The notes under the pieces were generated by a model. That model worked only from the letters and a program-made list of their open reading frames with translations, made no database searches and was not told the DNA's origin. DNA of 36,295 nucleotides, from contig JAHJZF010000050.1 of NCBI GenBank assembly GCA_018826645.1, positions 1 through 36,295 of the forward strand, given 5' to 3'. The first letter of the stretch is position 1. Every line of letters begins with the position of its first letter. Below, in pieces: positions 351 through 36,252 of the stretch. A program made the translations under genes and the position numbers. The stretch is from Patescibacteria group bacterium. Lineage in GTDB: Bacteria > Patescibacteriota > Minisyncoccia > UBA6257 > Colwellbacteraceae.

Positions 351-356
351 TATAAT
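351..356 (+). promoter_or_regulatory. TATAAT -10 box 6 nt upstream of the gap ATG (candidate leaderless promoter)
   Basis: Perfect TATAAT at 351-356, spacer aaaagt, ATG at 363. No SD motif. The -35 is poor. Confidence 0.4.
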
Positions 357-2490: not shown

Positions 2491-2496
2491 TATAAT
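2491..2496 (+). promoter_or_regulatory. TATAAT -10 box 7 nt upstream of the rpiB ATG (candidate leaderless promoter)
   Basis: Perfect TATAAT at 2491-2496, spacer ataaaga, ATG at 2504. Confidence 0.4.
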
Positions 2497-3578: not shown

Positions 3579-4435
3579 TGTATTTAGACGAAAAAGAACA
3601 AAAATTTTTACAGGAGACTGCTAATAAAATTAGGAGGAAGATTATTGATATTCTTGAAGATGCTGGAAGTGGTCATTCTGCTGGTTCTCTTGGAATGGCA
3701 GACGTCTTTACCGCGCTCTATTTCCATATTCTTAAACACGATCCTAAGAACCCAAGCTGGGAAGAGAGAGATCGATTGGTGCTTTCGAATGGTCATATAG
3801 CGCCTGTTCAATATGTTACGATGGCCTACGCTGGATATTTACCAGTAAAGGAACTGAAGACATTAAGAAAGCTTCATTCTCGTCTACAGGGGCATCCTCA
3901 TCGAGAGGCGTTGCCTGGCATAGAGACTACTTCTGGTCCTCTTGGCGCCGGTCTTTCGCAGGCGGCCGGCATGGCACTGGCTGCGAGATTAGATGGTAGA
4001 AAGCATAGAATCTATTGTTTAATGTCTGATGGAGAACAGCAAGAGGGGTTAATTTGGGAGGCATCCATGTTTATTGGCAATAATAAGCTCTCGAACATTA
4101 CGGCCATTATGGATAGAAATAACATCCAAATAGATGGTTCTACGGAAAACGTGATGCCCCTCGAGCCCCTTAAAGAAAAGTATGAGGCTTTTGGATGGCA
4201 TGTTTTAGATATAGACGGTCACGATATAGAGCAGATAGTAGACGCGACCAACGAAGCGAAAGCAATTACATATCAGCCGACCCTCATAGTCGCCCATACA
4301 ATCCCGGGGAAGGGCGTGAGTTTTATGGAAGGGGATTTTGGGTGGCACGGTAAAGCGCCAACAAGATCGCAAGAACAAAAAGCGTTGGCAGAACTTCGGA
4401 CTATGAAGGGTAAGATTAAATCAGAACACGAATAA
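3578..4435 (+). CDS. tkt: transketolase, N-terminal (TPP/PP-binding) subunit of a split enzyme
   Basis: GSGHSAGSLG, LSNGH and the GDG-type box CLMSDGEQQEG. 285 aa, followed directly by the C-terminal subunit. Confidence 0.9.
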   Translation: MYLDEKEQKFLQETANKIRRKIIDILEDAGSGHSAGSLGMADVFTALYFHILKHDPKNPSWEERDRLVLSNGHIAPVQYVTMAYAGYLPVKELKTLRKLHSRLQGHPHREALPGIETTSGPLGAGLSQAAGMALAARLDGRKHRIYCLMSDGEQQEGLIWEASMFIGNNKLSNITAIMDRNNIQIDGSTENVMPLEPLKEKYEAFGWHVLDIDGHDIEQIVDATNEAKAITYQPTLIVAHTIPGKGVSFMEGDFGWHGKAPTRSQEQKALAELRTMKGKIKSEHE

Positions 4436-7985: not shown

Positions 7986-7991
7986 TATAAT
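7986..7991 (+). promoter_or_regulatory. TATAAT -10 box 7 nt upstream of the ATG at 7999 (candidate leaderless promoter)
   Basis: Perfect TATAAT at 7986-7991, spacer aaaagta, ATG at 7999. Confidence 0.4.
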
Positions 7992-7998
7992 AAAAGTA

Positions 7999-9438
7999 AT
8001 GAGACCCAGACCCCGCCTTTTAGTAGACATAAAGAGGGGGTGGAGGGTTGATGTTTTTACCCCGCGGTCGGGGCGCGTCAACTTAAGCCCTATATCTAAA
8101 ACCAGAGAGAGAAGACCTCTGTTAAAACCAGTTTTGGGAGTGTTGGCCACTATTGGCTTTGTTCTTATGGCTAATGGTTCAGCCTTTGCTCCGATAGGGG
8201 GAGGAGTGAGAGCTTTGACCATAGAGCAGGAGCGTGAACAACTTGAAGGCCAGCTTCAAAAATTAGAACAAGAGGCAAAACAATACGAGCAGACTATTAC
8301 TGAGTATCGAAAAAAAGGGAATACCCTACAGTCTGAGATAGATCGTCTTAATGCTCGGATTGCTAATATTAATGGCCAAATTGGCACGATTACATCCTCT
8401 CTTAATAAATTAACTGGCCAAATTAAAACGACCAGTTCAAGAATAGAAGAGGTCCAAGGGAAAATAGGACGCAGCAAAGATAGTCTTTCAGAAGTCGTTC
8501 AGAGGATGAGTCGAGATGAAGAGAAGGGTGTTTTGGAGATTCTCCTTACCAATCAAAACCTCTCAGATTTCTTTACAAGCGTGAATGACCTTCTGGTGAT
8601 TCAAGACAGTCTAAAGGAATCTATTATGAACTTAGATCAATTTAGAGAAGAACTTATTACGCAAAAAGAGATTCTTGCGCTTGAGAGATCTGACATAGAA
8701 GCATTGCGTCTTTATCAGGTAAGGCAGAAGCAAGAGGTGGACTCTGTAAAATCTGATAAAAACAACTTGCTGGCTGTTACCAAAGGAGAAGAAGCCGTGT
8801 ACCAACAATTATTAAACATAACAGAGCAAACAGCCGCAGAAATTAGGGCTAGAATCTTCCGTCTTTTGGGTGGTGGACAAATGACGTTCGAAGAAGCTTA
8901 TAAATTTGCGAGCTACGTCGAAAAAAGAACGGGCGTGAGAGCGGCTTTGATATTGGCCGTATTAGATAGAGAATCTGCTTTAGGTAGAAATGTGGGGCAG
9001 TGTAATTATAAAACGGCCATGGCGCCTGGTCCGCCTGAGTCTAGCCGAGACGACATTACGCCTTTCTTACAAATTACTAAGGCTCTTAATTTGGACCCAG
9101 ACAAGACATTAGTCTCGTGTCCGATAGTGGCCGATGGTTATTATGGCGGAGCGATGGGTCCGTCTCAGTTTATCCCTAGCACTTGGGTAGGATATCAAGC
9201 ACGTATCGAAGCGGTAACTGGCAACAGGCCAGCCAGCCCGTGGAATAATTTAGATGCCTTCGTTGCTACGGGCCTTTATTTGAAAGATTCTGGAGCAGCT
9301 TCAAACGAGCTTGCCGCCGCCGCTCGTTACTACTGTGGAGGAAATTGGCAGAGGTATGTCTGTACGAACGTCTATGGAAAAGCCGTGATAGAAAGAGCCA
9401 CTGATTTTGAGAGAGACATCAAGATTCTCGGGGGCTAA
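7999..9438 (+). CDS. membrane-anchored coiled-coil protein with C-terminal lytic-transglycosylase-like domain
   Basis: Arg-rich N-terminus, TM/signal segment VLGVLATIGFVLMANGSAFA, then about 200 aa of heptad-like coiled coil. The C-terminal block LAVLDRESALG...GGAMGPSQFIPSTW resembles SLT/MltB-type transglycosylases. Confidence 0.6.
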   Translation: MRPRPRLLVDIKRGWRVDVFTPRSGRVNLSPISKTRERRPLLKPVLGVLATIGFVLMANGSAFAPIGGGVRALTIEQEREQLEGQLQKLEQEAKQYEQTITEYRKKGNTLQSEIDRLNARIANINGQIGTITSSLNKLTGQIKTTSSRIEEVQGKIGRSKDSLSEVVQRMSRDEEKGVLEILLTNQNLSDFFTSVNDLLVIQDSLKESIMNLDQFREELITQKEILALERSDIEALRLYQVRQKQEVDSVKSDKNNLLAVTKGEEAVYQQLLNITEQTAAEIRARIFRLLGGGQMTFEEAYKFASYVEKRTGVRAALILAVLDRESALGRNVGQCNYKTAMAPGPPESSRDDITPFLQITKALNLDPDKTLVSCPIVADGYYGGAMGPSQFIPSTWVGYQARIEAVTGNRPASPWNNLDAFVATGLYLKDSGAASNELAAAARYYCGGNWQRYVCTNVYGKAVIERATDFERDIKILGG

Positions 9439-11231: not shown

Positions 11232-11262
11232 AACCCCATCCTCATCGGAGAGGAGGTGACCC

Positions 11263-12609
11263 ATGCAGCGGTGCACCGGTAAGAAGAAGAACGGGAGCGA
11301 TTGTATGTCGCCGTTCATCGTGCCGGGCTCCAGCCCGTTGCGATGTGGGTGGCACCTCGAAGGTGCACCTCCCCCGAAGAGAAAGAAGGGAAAGATGGCC
11401 AAGGACAAGTCGGCGCGTCGCCGTATCGGCGCAGTAGAGACAGCGGTTACGAGCATTCAAGCTTCTGTGGCGAGCATTCCGCATGCCATGGCTACCGCGG
11501 TCCAGACTGCGTTCGATCGCGAGCGCACTGAGCGTGAGGCTGACGTTCGTCGTCTCAACGATCGGGTCAATGATGAGGGGCGTCGACGTCGTAACCTCGG
11601 AGGGTTCGTCGGTGGTGGACTTGGTTTGCTGGCGATCGTGGTCGCAATCGTTCTCTCCCTTATGGGAGGAAGGGTTGGGCGCAACGCCGACAACATCGGT
11701 GACAACGCCACGGCAATCACTGCCGTCAATGACCGAATCGACGGTGTCGTGACTTCCATCGCTGACTTGCGAGCTGATTTCGAGCGGTTCACGCTCGACT
11801 TCGGTCCGCGCGTTGGCGCTCTGGAGACAGATATCGCGGGCACCGACCAGGAGATCGCCGATCTCCGCGAATGGTTGAGCGATGAGCTCGGCTATATCCG
11901 CGGAGACATCCAGCGTTTCTACGATACGCTGGATGCGCGACTCCTAGTGGTCGAAGGTCGTGCCGAACCTATGACGACGGACGAGTTCCGTCTGATGGTT
12001 CTTGGCGTTCTCGCAGAGTGTGGCATTCCATGTCGCGTCTGCGAGATTCCTCCGTCGACGGTGCCTTACGCACCGCCGACAACCCGAGGAGGTGGTGGCT
12101 CGACGACGTCTACAACACAGGCGTCAACGACTACCACGGTGGCGCCGTCTACGACGACGACCACCGTGGCACCGACGAGCACGACGACTACGACCAGCAC
12201 TACGGTCCCGTCCACGACTAGCACGACGAGCACTACGACCACCGAACCGACCACGACTACGACCCTGAATGTCGGTCCTGAGATCATCTCGATTTCGGCG
12301 ACACTCGGGGAGACGAATTGTGAAGGTTTCGCAGAGGTCGTCTTCGGAGCGAGCGTCTCCGATCCAGACGGCGTGAGGTCGGTTGTGTTCTCTCTGGCAA
12401 ACGGCTCGTACTACTTGGGTTGGCACACTGTCACCGTGACGGCGACGGACAACCTTGGGGCATCGACGAGTCGCCCCTATAGGTTCAACGTCCCGGAGGT
12501 AGAGAATCCGGCGGCGTGCGGTAGTCAGCCCACCATTCCGACGGAGACGACGACCAGCACCACCGAGGGCGGTGGCAATCAGCCGACGATTCCGACGACG
12601 ATTCCGTAG
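11263..12609 (+). CDS. high-GC foreign-looking membrane/surface protein: Cys/His N-terminus, TM helix, coiled coil, Thr/Ser-rich linker, Ig-like C-terminal domain
   Basis: AGGAGG sits 6 nt upstream of the ATG. N-terminal C-x9-C-x13-C-x2-H (MQRCTGKKKNGSDCMSPFIVPGSSPLRCGWH). TM segment GGLGLLAIVVAIVLSLMGG. Low-complexity run TTSTTQASTTTTVAPSTTTTTVAPTSTTTTTSTT. The other long ORFs in this span are Arg-rich shadows typical of high-GC DNA. M45 (11395) is an alternative start. Confidence 0.7.
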   Translation: MQRCTGKKKNGSDCMSPFIVPGSSPLRCGWHLEGAPPPKRKKGKMAKDKSARRRIGAVETAVTSIQASVASIPHAMATAVQTAFDRERTEREADVRRLNDRVNDEGRRRRNLGGFVGGGLGLLAIVVAIVLSLMGGRVGRNADNIGDNATAITAVNDRIDGVVTSIADLRADFERFTLDFGPRVGALETDIAGTDQEIADLREWLSDELGYIRGDIQRFYDTLDARLLVVEGRAEPMTTDEFRLMVLGVLAECGIPCRVCEIPPSTVPYAPPTTRGGGGSTTSTTQASTTTTVAPSTTTTTVAPTSTTTTTSTTVPSTTSTTSTTTTEPTTTTTLNVGPEIISISATLGETNCEGFAEVVFGASVSDPDGVRSVVFSLANGSYYLGWHTVTVTATDNLGASTSRPYRFNVPEVENPAACGSQPTIPTETTTSTTEGGGNQPTIPTTIP

Positions 12610-15465: not shown

Positions 15466-15701
15466 ATCAAGACGGTCGGTTAAGTTAGAAATGATATATG
15501 GATTCATAGACAACTGACATACGAGAACTTTAAGAAATAGAGGTTCCGCCTCTACAGATGCTTGGTCACCACGACAACATATACAGGCGTTTGTAGAGGC
15601 GGAATTTACTTATATATAGGTAGAGTGCTTTTTAGTTGTCCCGAGCTTACATTTCGGTAAGTAAAGGTCTATTCCCTCTGGAGAGTTTCTTCAGAGCGAT
15701 T

Positions 15702-17290
15702 AATTAGGAGGATTTGATCCTGGTCCAGGATGAACGCTGGCGGCGTGGATAAGGCATGCAAGTTGAGCGCTGTATTTTCAATTGACCAAACCTTCGGGCG
15801 AGGTCGCCGAAAATACGGAGCGGCAAACGAGTTAGTAACACCTTGGTATCTACCCCATACTCAGGAATAAGCCATCGAAAGATGGTCTAATACCTGATAG
15901 TCCCCGCTTTCGCTTTTCGTTTCACGAAAAGCTACAGCGGGCAAGCCGCAAGGCCTGCCCACCGTAGCTCCTAGTGGAGCGCAGAGCGAAGGTGGGGTAA
16001 AACTTTTGTGGTATGGGAGGAGCCTAGGCCCGATCAGCTAGATGGTGTGGTAATGGCGCACCATGGCTATGACCGGTAGGGGAGGTGAGAGCCTGACCCC
16101 CAACGACGGAACTGAGACACGGTCCGTACACCTACGGGTGGCCGCAGTCGAGAATATTCCACAATGGGCGAAAGCCTGATGGAGCGACGCCGCGTGCAGG
16201 AAGACGGCCTTCGGGTTGTAAACTGCTTTTCTAGGGGAAAAATATTGATGGTACCTTAGGAATAAGGAGTGGCTAAATTCGTGCCAGCAGCAGCGGTAAT
16301 ACGAATACTCCAAGCGTTATCCGAATTTATTGGGCGTAAAGCGTACGTAGGGGGCTTGATGCGTCTACTGTTAAATCTCACCGCCCAACGGTGAGGCCGC
16401 AGTAGATACGGTCAGGCTAGAGAATGCGAGAGGTCTGTGGAACGCACGGTGTAGGGGTGGTATCCGTTGATATCGTGCGGAACACCAAAGGCGAAGGCAG
16501 CAGACTGGCGTATTTCTGACCCTGAGGTACGAAAGCGTGGGTAGCGAACGGGATTAGATACCCCGGTAGTCCACGCCGTAAACTATGTTGACTAGCTGTT
16601 TCGAGTATCGACCCTCGGAGTGGCGCAGCTAACGCGTTAAGTCAACCGCCTGGGAAGTACGACCGCAAGGTTAAAACTCAAAGGAATAGACGGGGGCTCG
16701 CACAAGCGGAGGAACATGAGGTTTAATTCGATACTAAGCGAGGAACCTTACCTAGGCTTGACACCTAGACGAACGCCAGCCGAAAGGCAGGCTTCTGGAT
16801 TTATTCAGCGGCTAGGCAGGTGCTGCATGGTTGCCGTCAGCTCGTGTCTTGAGATGTACCATTAAGTTGGGAAACGAGCGCAACCCTCATCATCAGTTAC
16901 AAGTGTCTGATGAAACTGCCCTGATTCACAGGGAGGAAGGAGAGGATGACGTCAAATCAGCATGGCCCTTTGATGCCTAGGGCTACACTCATGTTACAAT
17001 GGCCGATACAAAGGGTTGCAAAGGAGTGATCCCAAGCTAATCCCATAAAGTCGGCCCCAGTTCGGATTGGAGGCTGCAACTCGCCTCCATGAAGTCGGAT
17101 TCGCTAGTAATCGCGCATCAGCTATGGCGCGGTGAATACGTTCCCGAGCCTTGTACTCACCGCCCGTCACGTCAAGGGAGCCGGGGACACCTGAAGCTTT
17201 AATTAATTTGAAGTTAGGGTGAATTCGGTGACATGGACGAAGTCGTAACAAGGCACGCGTAGCGGAAGCTGTGCGTGGAACAATTAAACT
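15702..17290 (+). rRNA. rrs: 16S ribosomal RNA, about 1.59 kb, with an expanded V2 region and no anti-SD tail
   Basis: 5' end ggaggatttgatcctggtccaggatgaacgctggcggcg. Internal universal blocks: gtgccagcagcagcggtaatac, ggattagataccccggtagtcc, aaactcaaaggaatagacggg, gcatggttgccgtcagctcgtg, ccgcccgtcac. 3' end gaagtcgtaacaaggcacgcgtagcggaagctgtgcgtggaacaattaaact. Confidence 0.95.
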
Positions 17291-17334
17291 TTGAGAATAG
17301 GTCCCCGACCTTAATCGGGGAGATATTGATCGAG

Positions 17335-17397
17335 CCCCGTTACATACGGGGCAAGCTCCGAAACTATTCGTGGAAAATCTGCGGGTATGTAACGGGG
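17335..17397 (+). repeat. variant hairpin doublet (CCCCGTTACATAC / GTATGTAACGGGG) in the 16S trailer
   Basis: Perfect 13-nt arms at 17335-17347 and 17385-17397 with a 37-nt spacer. It has the same CCCCGTTA..AC core as the 10.6-kb and 15.4-kb copies, with three compensated substitutions. Confidence 0.75.
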
Positions 17398-17520
17398 CGA
17401 GGAGTCTTTAAGTCTCGATTATCTGATTTCAACATCAGATTACTAATGACCTATTACCGAGGAGGCCCGCCACTGGCGGGTAAAGCTTGGGGCAACTAAA
17501 AAGTAAAATTACCTATATAA

Positions 17521-17556
17521 AGAAAGGCCCACCATTTGAGTGGGTCTTTCTTTTGC
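17521..17556 (+). terminator. rho-independent terminator ending the 16S transcription unit
   Basis: AGAAAGGCCCAC / GTGGGTCTTTCT stem (one G-T pair), 7-nt loop, followed by a tttcttttg run. Confidence 0.75.
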
Positions 17557-17576
17557 ACTACAATTAGTTAATAGAT

Positions 17577-17981
17577 ATGTCCGAAGAAAAGATAAACACA
17601 GAAGTTAAGCAAAAAACCATTCTATTAGTTGAGGATGACGTTTTTTTGTCGAACCTTCTAATGTCGCGTCTTCAGAAAGCTGGCCTCAAGGTGGTTAAGG
17701 CAATGACGGGAGAGGAGGCAATCTCAATTTTAAAAACAGATAATGAGCCGGACTTAATATTGCTTGATATAATTTTGCCTGAGATGACGGGATTTGAAGT
17801 ATTGAAACAAATTCAGGAAGATCCGACTCTCGGCAAATCACCGGTTATTATTGCATCTAACTTGGGTCAAAGTACCGATATCGAAAGGGGTAAACAATTT
17901 GGAGTTGTGAACTATTTTATTAAAGCCCAGACGCCGATTGATAAATTGGTTGAAGAGGTCAAGAGAGTTGTGGGTAAATAG
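17577..17981 (+). CDS. single-domain CheY-like response regulator
   Basis: Receiver-domain residues are present: LLVEDD, phospho-acceptor context LILLDIILPEMTG, conserved S/T (IASN) and K (FIKAQ). 134 aa with no output domain. Confidence 0.9.
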   Translation: MSEEKINTEVKQKTILLVEDDVFLSNLLMSRLQKAGLKVVKAMTGEEAISILKTDNEPDLILLDIILPEMTGFEVLKQIQEDPTLGKSPVIIASNLGQSTDIERGKQFGVVNYFIKAQTPIDKLVEEVKRVVGK

Positions 17982-28113: not shown

Positions 28114-28526
28114 TGGATTGGTTGTTTTGCAAGATAGCTTCTGGAGAAGTGTCGGCGCATATTATATATGAAGACGACAAAACATCGGCCTTTTTAGATA
28201 TTGAGCCTTCGTCATTGGGGCACACGATGGTAGTGCCCAAAGAGCATTATCAAGATTTTATGGATTTACCCGTCGATAATATGGACAATCTATTTGGGTC
28301 GGTTCAAAAAGTGGTGGACATGCTCGGAAAAACCTTTGGAGCAGATCATTTTACAATCGGGGTAAATAGCGGTAAAATCCTCGGACGTCATGTGGATCAT
28401 CTCCACGTGCACGTAATTCCTCGTTTTTCGGACGATGGAGGGGTTTTTCTGCAGGGAGTGGTAAAGAGTCCCCCTAAAGAAAGCTTGGAAGAAATAAAAG
28501 ACAAAATTTTAAAGGCTAATGGCTAA
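28113..28526 (+). CDS. HIT-family (histidine triad) protein
   Basis: Histidine triad HLHVHVIPR. 137 aa. The start overlaps the hisS stop (TAATG). Confidence 0.9.
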   Translation: MDWLFCKIASGEVSAHIIYEDDKTSAFLDIEPSSLGHTMVVPKEHYQDFMDLPVDNMDNLFGSVQKVVDMLGKTFGADHFTIGVNSGKILGRHVDHLHVHVIPRFSDDGGVFLQGVVKSPPKESLEEIKDKILKANG

Positions 28527-28743
28527 TATCAATCTAAAAAAGAAAGACGGCGAATCAACAAACTCCTTAGTTTATCGTTTTGGTAAGAAGGTCATGAGGA
28601 GCGGTATATTGAGAGAAGCTAGAAAGAGGAGATTTAATCACCGTCCTGTTAATCGTAACAAAAGGCGCGTTTCGGCGCTTCATAAAGCCGAAAAGAAGAA
28701 AGAGATAGATAAGGCAAGGAGAATGGGGACATTTAAATTTTAA
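28519..28743 (+). CDS. rpsU: 30S ribosomal protein S21
   Basis: 74-aa highly basic protein with an S21-like core: SLVYRFGKKVMRSGILREARKRRFNHRP...KR. Confidence 0.75.
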   Translation: MANINLKKKDGESTNSLVYRFGKKVMRSGILREARKRRFNHRPVNRNKRRVSALHKAEKKKEIDKARRMGTFKF

Positions 28744-35297: not shown

Positions 35298-35303
35298 TAT
35301 AAT
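35298..35303 (+). promoter_or_regulatory. TATAAT -10 box 7 nt upstream of the ATG at 35311 (candidate leaderless promoter)
   Basis: Perfect TATAAT at 35298-35303, spacer ataacta, ATG at 35311. Confidence 0.4.
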
Positions 35304-35310
35304 ATAACTA

Positions 35311-36252
35311 ATGGAACAGGACAAACATGCTCTTTGGTTTGCGGTTTTAGTAATCGTATCTCTCGCGACGTATGGTCTGTATGGTGAAACTAGACGCTCT
35401 TTAAGCGAAACTAACGAAGAACTTCATAGGGCTCAAGAAGAAATTGCACGTATAGTAGGAGAAAGCGAAGAGACCATCTCAACCCAACGCGACCTTATAG
35501 TCCAAAAGGATGAAGAGTTAGAGCAAAGTAAAGAGAGCGAAGAGCTTCTTCAAGAGGCGGTTGCAAGCCTGCAGAACACTTCGAGTAAGACCCAGACGTC
35601 TTTAAACAGCCTCTTAAGTGATTTTGCGCCTGCGGTAGTGAGGCTCGTTTGTCTTAGCGACTCTCTTACTCGTGGACTCCAGCAAGGCTCAGGAGTTCTT
35701 TATAAGGGCACTTCAATGTCTGGCATAGGACCATATTATGTACAGACGAACTTACATGTAATAGAAACAGAAGACGGATCTTCCTCGCAATGCGTTATTG
35801 CCGTCTATCCCGACCCTAATCGATCAGATTTTTATTATATCTATAAAAGCAATGGATATAAGCTCTATAAATCAGGAGTGGACTTGGCTTTTCTAGAGCC
35901 AGAGCTGGTTAGTGGACATTCAAAAGCTGGTACTCTCGGTCAGCTTAGTGATTCGGCCAGAAGTTCTGTCGACACCGCTCTTTGCACTACTGCTGGCATA
36001 GGGGACCACATAACTGTTCTTGGATATCCGGGCATTGGTGGAGACACTTTAACGGTAACGGATGGCATTGTTTCGGGATTTGAATTTCGTGAAGGGGCGA
36101 GATATATCAAAACTTCGGCCAAGATTGACCAGGGCAATTCAGGAGGAATCGCCATCAAAGATTCTGGCTGTTTGGTTGGAATACCAACCTATGTTCAATT
36201 TCAAAACGAGAGTTTAGGTAGAATATTAGATTTGTATCACCTGCTTAACTAG
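35311..36252 (+). CDS. membrane-anchored trypsin-like serine protease (S1 family, no PDZ seen)
   Basis: TM helix ALWFAVLVIVSLATYGLY and a coiled-coil segment. Catalytic-triad contexts TNLHVIE (His), DLAFLE (Asp), GNSGGIAI (Ser). Confidence 0.8.
   Translation: MEQDKHALWFAVLVIVSLATYGLYGETRRSLSETNEELHRAQEEIARIVGESEETISTQRDLIVQKDEELEQSKESEELLQEAVASLQNTSSKTQTSLNSLLSDFAPAVVRLVCLSDSLTRGLQQGSGVLYKGTSMSGIGPYYVQTNLHVIETEDGSSSQCVIAVYPDPNRSDFYYIYKSNGYKLYKSGVDLAFLEPELVSGHSKAGTLGQLSDSARSSVDTALCTTAGIGDHITVLGYPGIGGDTLTVTDGIVSGFEFREGARYIKTSAKIDQGNSGGIAIKDSGCLVGIPTYVQFQNESLGRILDLYHLLN

Follow-up and report, generated by a model that had tools for sequence, protein, structure and literature searches.

The 16S rRNA gene and its 3' end

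The window, i.e. the whole stretch of 36,295 nucleotides analysed here, comes from a tiny-genome member of the Parcubacteria (CPR), the genome of which (hereafter G000) amounts to 590,796 bp in 68 contigs with 42.6% GC and is 91% complete. It holds only one complete bacterial 16S rRNA gene, which matches the Rfam family RF00177 (SSU_rRNA_bacteria) over model positions 1-1533 with 1406 bits (Table 1). The 3' end of the gene was resolved per residue by a second cmscan of the region 16900-17650, in which helix 45 is aligned as CACGCGTAGC-GGAA-GCTGTGCGTG with posterior probability '*'; the pairing of its arms, which can also be written as CACGCGUAGC-GGAA-GCUGUGCGUG, is complete. This agrees with a previous annotation of the same DNA made from its letters alone (hereafter the sequence-only reading), where helix 45 was described as well conserved.

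The 13 nucleotides that follow helix 45 read GAACAATTAAACT, the Rfam consensus at this place being GAUCACCUCCUUu; the tail GAACAAUUAAACU hence stands where GAUCACCUCCUUA is usual. The skeleton of the canonical tail, comprising G1, A2, C4, A5 and U8, is retained, and the four C residues of CCUCC have all become A or U. Alignment to the Rfam 16S model thus confirms that the tail lacks an anti-Shine-Dalgarno (anti-SD) sequence and that ATTAA replaces the CCTCC core, as the sequence-only reading had claimed. The mature 3' end of the 16S rRNA would be located at or near ...AAUUAAACU, and the single CCTCC present within the 16S gene lies in the rRNA body, at 17084.

Table 1. Location of the features of the window that are discussed in the text
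Feature	Positions	Strand	Basis or remarks
TATAAT -10 box of a putative leaderless-type promoter, 12 nt before the ATG at 363	351..356	+	Genome-wide -12 peak
TATAAT -10 box, 13 nt before the ATG at 2504	2491..2496	+	
TATAAT -10 box preceded by TG, 13 nt before the ATG at 7999	7986..7991	+	
Strong orphan SD GGAGAGGAGGTGA before the 61%-GC gene 11263-12609	11247..11259	+	SD also present in the G002 allele
Conserved rRNA-leader motif TTTTTAGTTGTCCC, boxA-like and complementary to the tail	15629..15642	+	No covariation with the tail
16S rRNA gene, complete, solitary (23S and 5S absent downstream)	15702..17290	+	RF00177; sole 16S 3' end of the genome
Helix 45 with GGAA loop, canonical	17254..17277	+	cmscan alignment, every pair standard
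13-nt 3' tail GAACAAUUAAACU	17278..17290	+	cmscan; per-position conservation in 47 genomes of the order
AUUAA at the positions of the CCUCC anti-SD core	17283..17287	+	Sequence and cmscan
Structured 3' trailer without CCTCC, near-identical in the sister species except for one insertion	17291..17520	+	Sequence; alignment with G002
67-nt hairpin element within the trailer, CGAG on either side	17331..17397	+	Alignment A1; site empty in G002
Intrinsic-terminator-like hairpin and T run, end of the 16S transcription unit	17521..17556	+	Sequence; weak terminator-type Rfam matches at 17479-17556
Ribosomal protein bS21 gene, retained	28519..28743	+	ORF; PF01165 match at 28543-28689
TATAAT -10 box, 13 nt before the ATG at 35311	35298..35303	+	

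Integrity of the tail

Errors of assembly or binning, or a 16S pseudogene copy in decay, might give rise to a tail of this kind. Such a concern is fed by the condition of G000 itself, a 68-contig MAG, and by the bin of a relative (G063) in which three differing 16S genes occur, one of them canonical. However, the Rfam match is full-length and high-scoring, and no other 16S, nor any second 16S 3' end, was found anywhere in the 590-kb genome. Near-complete relatives (1-7 contigs) each carry a single 16S of the anti-SD-less type. In addition, an exact search for helix 45 followed by GGAWCAATTAAAC recovered the identical 48-nt segment of helix 45 and tail from 87 independent species-level assemblies, i.e. 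species-representative genomes assigned to Candidatus Harrisonbacteria, Liptonbacteria, Colwellbacteria, Paceibacter, the Parcubacteria group and Paceibacterota. We regard an artefactual tail as exceedingly improbable. In this regard, the sequence-only reading had called for an inspection of all rrs copies of the genome and of sister lineages; with one 16S 3' end in G000 and the same kind of tail recurring throughout the order, the tail is not an assembly error.

The canonical-tail 14-mer GGATCACCTCCTTA occurs once in the genome (contig C45, ~3932-3945, minus strand). Its interpretation as an rRNA fragment was rejected, as it runs antisense to a GC-rich ORF, at the 3' end of the latter; this ORF codes for ...KEAKEVILQ..., and we judge the match to be a coincidence.

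The region downstream of the tail bears on another explanation, namely that the real CCUCC tail has been displaced by a 3'-terminal insertion or intron, or forms part of a longer mature rRNA. Insertions are common in CPR rRNA genes, and the trailer of this 16S gene does hold an inserted element, a perfect-stem hairpin of 67 nt whose uninterrupted counterpart in the sister species G002 reads GATCGAGGAGTC (alignment A1). Nevertheless, G002, which is devoid of the hairpin, carries the same tail as G000. Moreover, CCTCC is absent from 17291-17560, the 270 nt that extend from the tail to the terminator, and in 25 relatives the 600 nt that follow helix 45 contain no displaced GATCACCTCC. A canonical GAUCACCUCC downstream of an interruption, by which a terminal exon hidden by an intron could be recognized, was likewise not found. 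The 67-nt insertion itself looks like a small mobile hairpin element and not like an intron that hides a terminal exon. A displaced tail therefore has, in our view, virtually no chance of accounting for the data, in keeping with the sequence-only reading, where a 3'-terminal intron concealing the real tail was deemed unlikely.

Distribution of the loss within the order and the class

A survey of the order covered 121 genomes from 32 families and yielded, by a hand tally of matches, ~85 16S 3' ends with a genuine helix 45. All of them are non-canonical, save for one extra 16S in bin G063. This 1.1-Mb bin, which is probably mixed, displays three different 16S 3' ends on contigs C10, C31 and C33, one of which belongs to a divergent extra 16S and has a canonical CACCUCC tail. 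The commonest tails within the order are GGAUCAAUUAAACU and GGAACAAUUAAACU, and GGAUCAUUUAA.., GAAACAUUUCUUUU, GGACCAAUUCU.. and GGAUCAUCUUUAAA are found as well.

Conservation along the tail was analysed in 47 genomes of the order. Positions 2, 5 and 8 are conserved at 98% and positions 4 and 7 at 85%, entropy reaches 0.75-1.2 bits at the four former C positions, and past position 13 it takes near-random values of 1.5-1.9 bits. This per-position pattern indicates that the tail has retained both its length and the G-A-n-C-A...U skeleton, and that it is specifically the SD-pairing C residues that have been lost. The order as a whole has lost the CCUCC anti-SD.

At the level of the class, 251 genomes were sampled and 158 matched, the categories being approximate counts made by hand: ~58 genomes retain the canonical GGAUCACCUCCUUU, ~20 carry eroded tails in which CUCC is still held (CAUCUCCUUU, UUUCUCCUUU and AUUCUCCUUU), and ~70 are without any anti-SD. 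The class is a graded series that runs from canonical through eroded to lost tails, with the order of the window at the lost end.

Initiation signals upstream of the genes

With CCUCC lost, start codons cannot be selected by SD pairing. Upstream signals were analysed on gene starts that rest on our own ORF heuristic instead of a trained gene finder: ORFs with 100 codons or more were taken, overlaps were resolved, and the start set was made up of the 341 genes whose first start codon is an ATG at most 60 nt from the upstream in-frame stop. No enrichment of G was found upstream of these 341 starts, the G fraction being 0.10-0.22 at -20..-1. A and T are enriched, with A reaching 54% at -4, and SD words are not, GGAG for instance occurring 24 times as compared to 31 in the control window.

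Native genes (GC < 0.50) show an SD word in -18..-4 in 15 of 325 cases, against 31 of 325 in the control window, which amounts to a depletion. The genes with a GC content of at least 0.50, which double as an internal positive control for SD detection, show it in 13 of 16 (Fisher p=1.7e-13 versus native genes). The depletion was repeated in a member of the same family, G020 (9/242 versus 16/242 in the control; 400 kb analysed). Genome-wide statistics on ribosome-binding motifs had been recommended by the sequence-only reading, and they bear out its statement that native genes lack SD motifs. Accordingly, no enriched SD motif precedes the ORFs of G000, which is the mark of SD independence in Amin et al. 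(2018).

A positive signal was found in the form of a promoter box. Among hexamers in the 22 nt upstream of the starts, TATAAT ranks first, and the start positions of TANNNT peak sharply at -12 (46 versus a background of ~10), with TG upstream. Strict variants of the -10 box occur within -16..-6 in 71 of the 325 native genes, compared to 18 of 325 in the control window, and Table 1 lists four such boxes from the window. With a hexamer at -12..-7, the start of transcription falls on the A of the ATG, the hallmark of a leaderless mRNA; judging from the position of the box, the genes that carry it would thus be transcribed from their start codon onwards. Many genes of G000 therefore present the arrangement that characterizes leaderless-rich genomes, i.e. 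a -10 hexamer at a fixed 6-7 nt before the start codon. The -12 peak is also observed in G020 and in G319, a complete genome that belongs to the same class and keeps a canonical tail. Together, the absence of the anti-SD, the depletion of SD words and this leaderless signal lend support to the SD-independent initiation that the sequence-only reading had taken to be implied by the tail.

Distances between genes on the same strand peak at -4 and -1 (overlaps of 4 or 1 nt), and 181 of the 344 same-strand pairs lie at most 30 nt apart. These overlaps and short gaps are consistent with translational coupling or reinitiation. No positioned upstream motif was found in the operon-internal genes that have no promoter box.

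Possible roles of the A/U-rich tail

The upstream regions also bear on whether the tail could be an alternative anti-SD, with AAUUAA pairing with a co-evolved ribosome-binding site of the UUAAUU type. The positions of the tail are indeed far more conserved than the trailer, and 5- and 6-mers complementary to AACAAUUAAAC lie marginally above those of permuted tails upstream of genes (p about 0.05-0.06). The 7-mer complement, however, shows no excess (p=0.87), and the complementary k-mers remain well below the top upstream words, TATAAT and AATAAA. A sharp positional peak is missing, also in the operon-internal genes without a promoter box, and families with other tails (AUUUCUUUU, AUUUAA...) give the same general pattern. 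In addition, a 6-bp helix composed of A:U pairs only would have approximately zero stability according to our own nearest-neighbour estimate, and a variant anti-SD matched by a variant SD was not found by Amin et al. (2018; PMC6107228). As neither the k-mer nor the positional and permutation tests revealed a convincing enrichment, AAUUAA:UUAAUU pairing was rejected, and an alternative anti-SD appears very improbable.

Another possibility is that the tail is not inert but is kept by base-pairing with a leader motif, UUUUUAGUUGUCCC, in the pre-16S rRNA, as a processing or assembly helix. The motif TTTTTAGTTGTCCC was found, with up to 4 mismatches, in 35 of 47 genomes of the order, between -23 and -127 relative to the 5' end of the 16S and alongside any variant of the tail; a boxA-like element for antitermination or processing is its probable identity. 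In G000, the MFE dimer joins 17277-17293 to 15621-15643 through 18 bp, and several members of the family have a like complementarity. The energy of this dimer, however, is no better than that obtained with shuffled leaders (z=-1.2), the motif is equally conserved in genomes with non-complementary tails, and the motif of L016 clearly pairs with a segment of the trailer instead (z=-5.6). Across the 47 genomes, pairing between a leader and the tail of the same genome is no better than that between mismatched ones (permutation p=0.30). As covariation is missing, pairing with TTTTTAGTTGTCCC was rejected as the cause of tail conservation, and we consider it quite unlikely that a helix with the leader maintains the tail.

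Ribosomal proteins and Era

Searches with PF00687 found no ribosomal protein uL1 in G000, nor in 5 relatives that are 98-100% complete; the same profile detected the protein in 14 of 14 reference genomes. Era was missing from the results for G000 and for 5 relatives as well, the GTPase matches corresponding to IF2 and Obg. With G000 being 91% complete, both absences lean partly on the relatives. In this regard, Era recognises GAUCACCUCC and most CPR are without Era (PMC10582724), and Paceibacteria have no rplA and mostly no era (PMC12641178).

Neither uL1 nor Era was found in the canonical-tail genome G319. The notion that the loss of Era or uL1 tracks that of the anti-SD was rejected on this basis, so that their loss would be permissive at most, and not coupled to that of the anti-SD. 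As for the use of SD sites in G319, they precede 23 of 198 genes (~12%), versus 12 of 198 in the control. This single comparator suggests that low SD use and a lost Era constraint preceded the erosion of the anti-SD, an order of evolutionary events that we infer.

A gene for bS1 was not found in G000, whose S1 domains belong to PNPase and NusA only. G002, of the same genus, as well as G014, G020 and G026, encode a protein of 390-430 aa with 3-4 S1 domains. The idea that the organism is devoid of bS1 was rejected in view of these relatives, and the missing gene most likely reflects the incompleteness of the assembly. The gene for bS21, a protein that helps to expose or sequester the anti-SD in other bacteria, is retained in the window though the anti-SD is gone, and is also present in most relatives.

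GC-rich genes with orphan SD sites

Around 30 genes of G000 are GC-rich (0.51-0.61, versus a genome median of 0.42) and occur in islands on otherwise native contigs. Most of them are SD-led with textbook sites, and GTG or TTG starts are frequent among them. GC-rich genes of the SD-led type are located on C6 (7-23 kb), C19, C22, C24, C28, C31, C34, C44, C45, C52, C54 and C61. The one in the window that is preceded by a strong SD (Table 1) is represented by only two alleles, the G000 type and the G002 type, in the collections searched.

The GC-rich genes annotated by Pfam include a sigma-70 region 4-alpha C-terminal fusion, an SPFH protein and two truncated AlaRS-like proteins, and others have no Pfam match. 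The fusion is encoded on C22 (6743-7939, minus strand) by an SD-led gene in which an HTH and sigma-70 region 4 are fused to the C-terminal domain of the RNA polymerase alpha subunit. The AlaRS-like proteins (402 and 433 aa) are encoded by two tandem, overlapping SD-led genes on C54 (2965-5471), and each consists of the AlaRS class II catalytic domain only (PF01411).

No homologue of the island protein C6:11824-12978 was found in 250 genomes of the class, and the family member G020 has few GC-rich genes, without a clear SD. The proposal that these cassettes are shared with anti-SD-bearing Paceibacteria is thus unsupported; rather, the set looks specific to the genus of G000. The simplest reading is that the GC-rich genes would be mobile or recently acquired DNA, with SD-using organisms as donors, and that their SD sites would be inert in G000.

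These sites, together with the tail, bear on a broader possibility, i.e. that the loss of the anti-SD is not simple decay and that the cells still use the A/U tail, the SD sites, or both. It builds on the GAnCAwUU skeleton, conserved far above the trailer, and on the ~30 GC-rich genes that keep a textbook SD, a signal which the ribosomes of G000 are not expected to read. The tail could have acquired a new docking or assembly role, or the SD could be read by something other than the 16S tail. In a more mundane form, a pool of mobile genes would shuttle between anti-SD-bearing and anti-SD-less Parcubacteria and would be selected only in the former. On the whole, we hold this broader possibility to be unlikely, and favour a loss that followed relaxed constraint.

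A model for initiation without the anti-SD

SD:anti-SD pairing is the textbook mechanism of start-site selection in bacteria, and few known RNA sequences are as conserved as the CCUCC tail. Starting from what is directly observed, namely the sequence of the tail, its spread within the lineage, the depletion of SD words and the position of the promoter box, we consider it highly probable that the sole functional 16S rRNA of this member of the Parcubacteria/Paceibacteria shares in an order-wide loss of CCUCC and that initiation proceeds free of SD pairing.

According to this model, the first genes of transcription units would be translated from leaderless mRNAs, as a -10 box lies 6-7 nt before their ATG. 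Operon-internal genes would probably rely on termination-reinitiation or coupling, given starts that overlap the stop of the gene before or lie right next to it, and the remaining starts, with an A/U-rich and G-poor upstream region, would probably be aided by a short bS1 of 3-4 domains. The loss of the anti-SD itself probably took place after constraint had been relaxed, since Era and uL1 are missing class-wide and the canonical-tail sister genome is already SD-poor (~12%).

The existence of a large, species-rich environmental lineage without the anti-SD, beyond a few endosymbionts, means that an entire bacterial proteome can do without SD:anti-SD pairing. Tails of the canonical, eroded and lost kinds constitute a natural series in which to study how the loss happens. 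From a practical point of view, gene finders that rely on SD motifs will mis-call starts in anti-SD-less genomes.

Comparison with known systems

Loss of the anti-SD had been described as uncommon by the sequence-only reading, which is correct in general but not for the lineage of the window, where it is the rule and has already been published (PMC9297842). In what it states on the 16S 3' end, the work of Tsurumaki, Saito, Tomita and Kanai (2022, RNA 28:1041) reports CCTCCT in only 48% of Parcubacteria, places the anti-SD-less lineages in overlap with the uL1-lacking group, and presumes that SD helices do not form there. The genome of the window belongs to the same Parcubacteria/Paceibacteria lineage and displays the same feature, i.e. 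a full-length 16S with helix 45, a tail devoid of CCUCC and, in line with the uL1-lacking group, no uL1 found. The window is a member of this published case; the loss being known for the lineage, the present instance adds detail and is not a discovery.

The statement of Tsurumaki et al. (2022) on this point is short, and within it neither the replacement tail nor graded erosion, a leaderless promoter signature or SD-bearing accessory genes are mentioned. As to the link with uL1 made there, this protein is missing also from the canonical-tail genome G319 in our sample. No paper linking anti-SD loss to leaderless promoters was found in the literature searched.

Beyond this lineage, 128 taxa without a CCUCCU anti-SD and without SD have been described (Amin et al., 2018, PLoS One; PMC6107228; cf. 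Lim et al., 2012). They likewise have a 13-nt tail after helix 45 with no anti-SD, are devoid of SD motifs and show no variant SD. They are mainly Flavobacteriia (Chryseobacterium, Elizabethkingia, Riemerella, Blattabacterium), along with Mycoplasma and Carsonella, and the CPR lie outside that picture.

G000 also resembles Bacteroidetes-type initiation, with genes that have no SD, A-rich upstream regions and a retained bS21. In Bacteroidetes, the anti-SD is reported by Jha et al. (2021) and Baez et al. (2019) to be present but sequestered by bS21/bS18/bS6. These bacteria keep CCUCC in the tail, whereas the 16S of the window does not; therefore, sequestration of the Bacteroidetes type is not the mechanism operating here.

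Leaderless-rich bacteria, the 'group C' of GeneMarkS-2, are represented by Actinobacteria and Deinococcus. The likeness with G000 lies in the -10 box, whose distance to the start codon is fixed at 6-7 nt in many first genes. Actinobacteria and Deinococcus, however, retain a canonical anti-SD and use SD sites for leadered genes, whereas G000 has no SD alternative.

The mammalian mitochondrial 12S rRNA offers a further parallel, as it is without an anti-SD and the mRNAs are leaderless or near-leaderless; the anti-SD is absent from mitochondrial SSU rRNA (PMC10582724). Mitochondria, however, are organelles that have dedicated factors and translate just a handful of mRNAs, whereas here an entire bacterial genome with about 600 genes is concerned.
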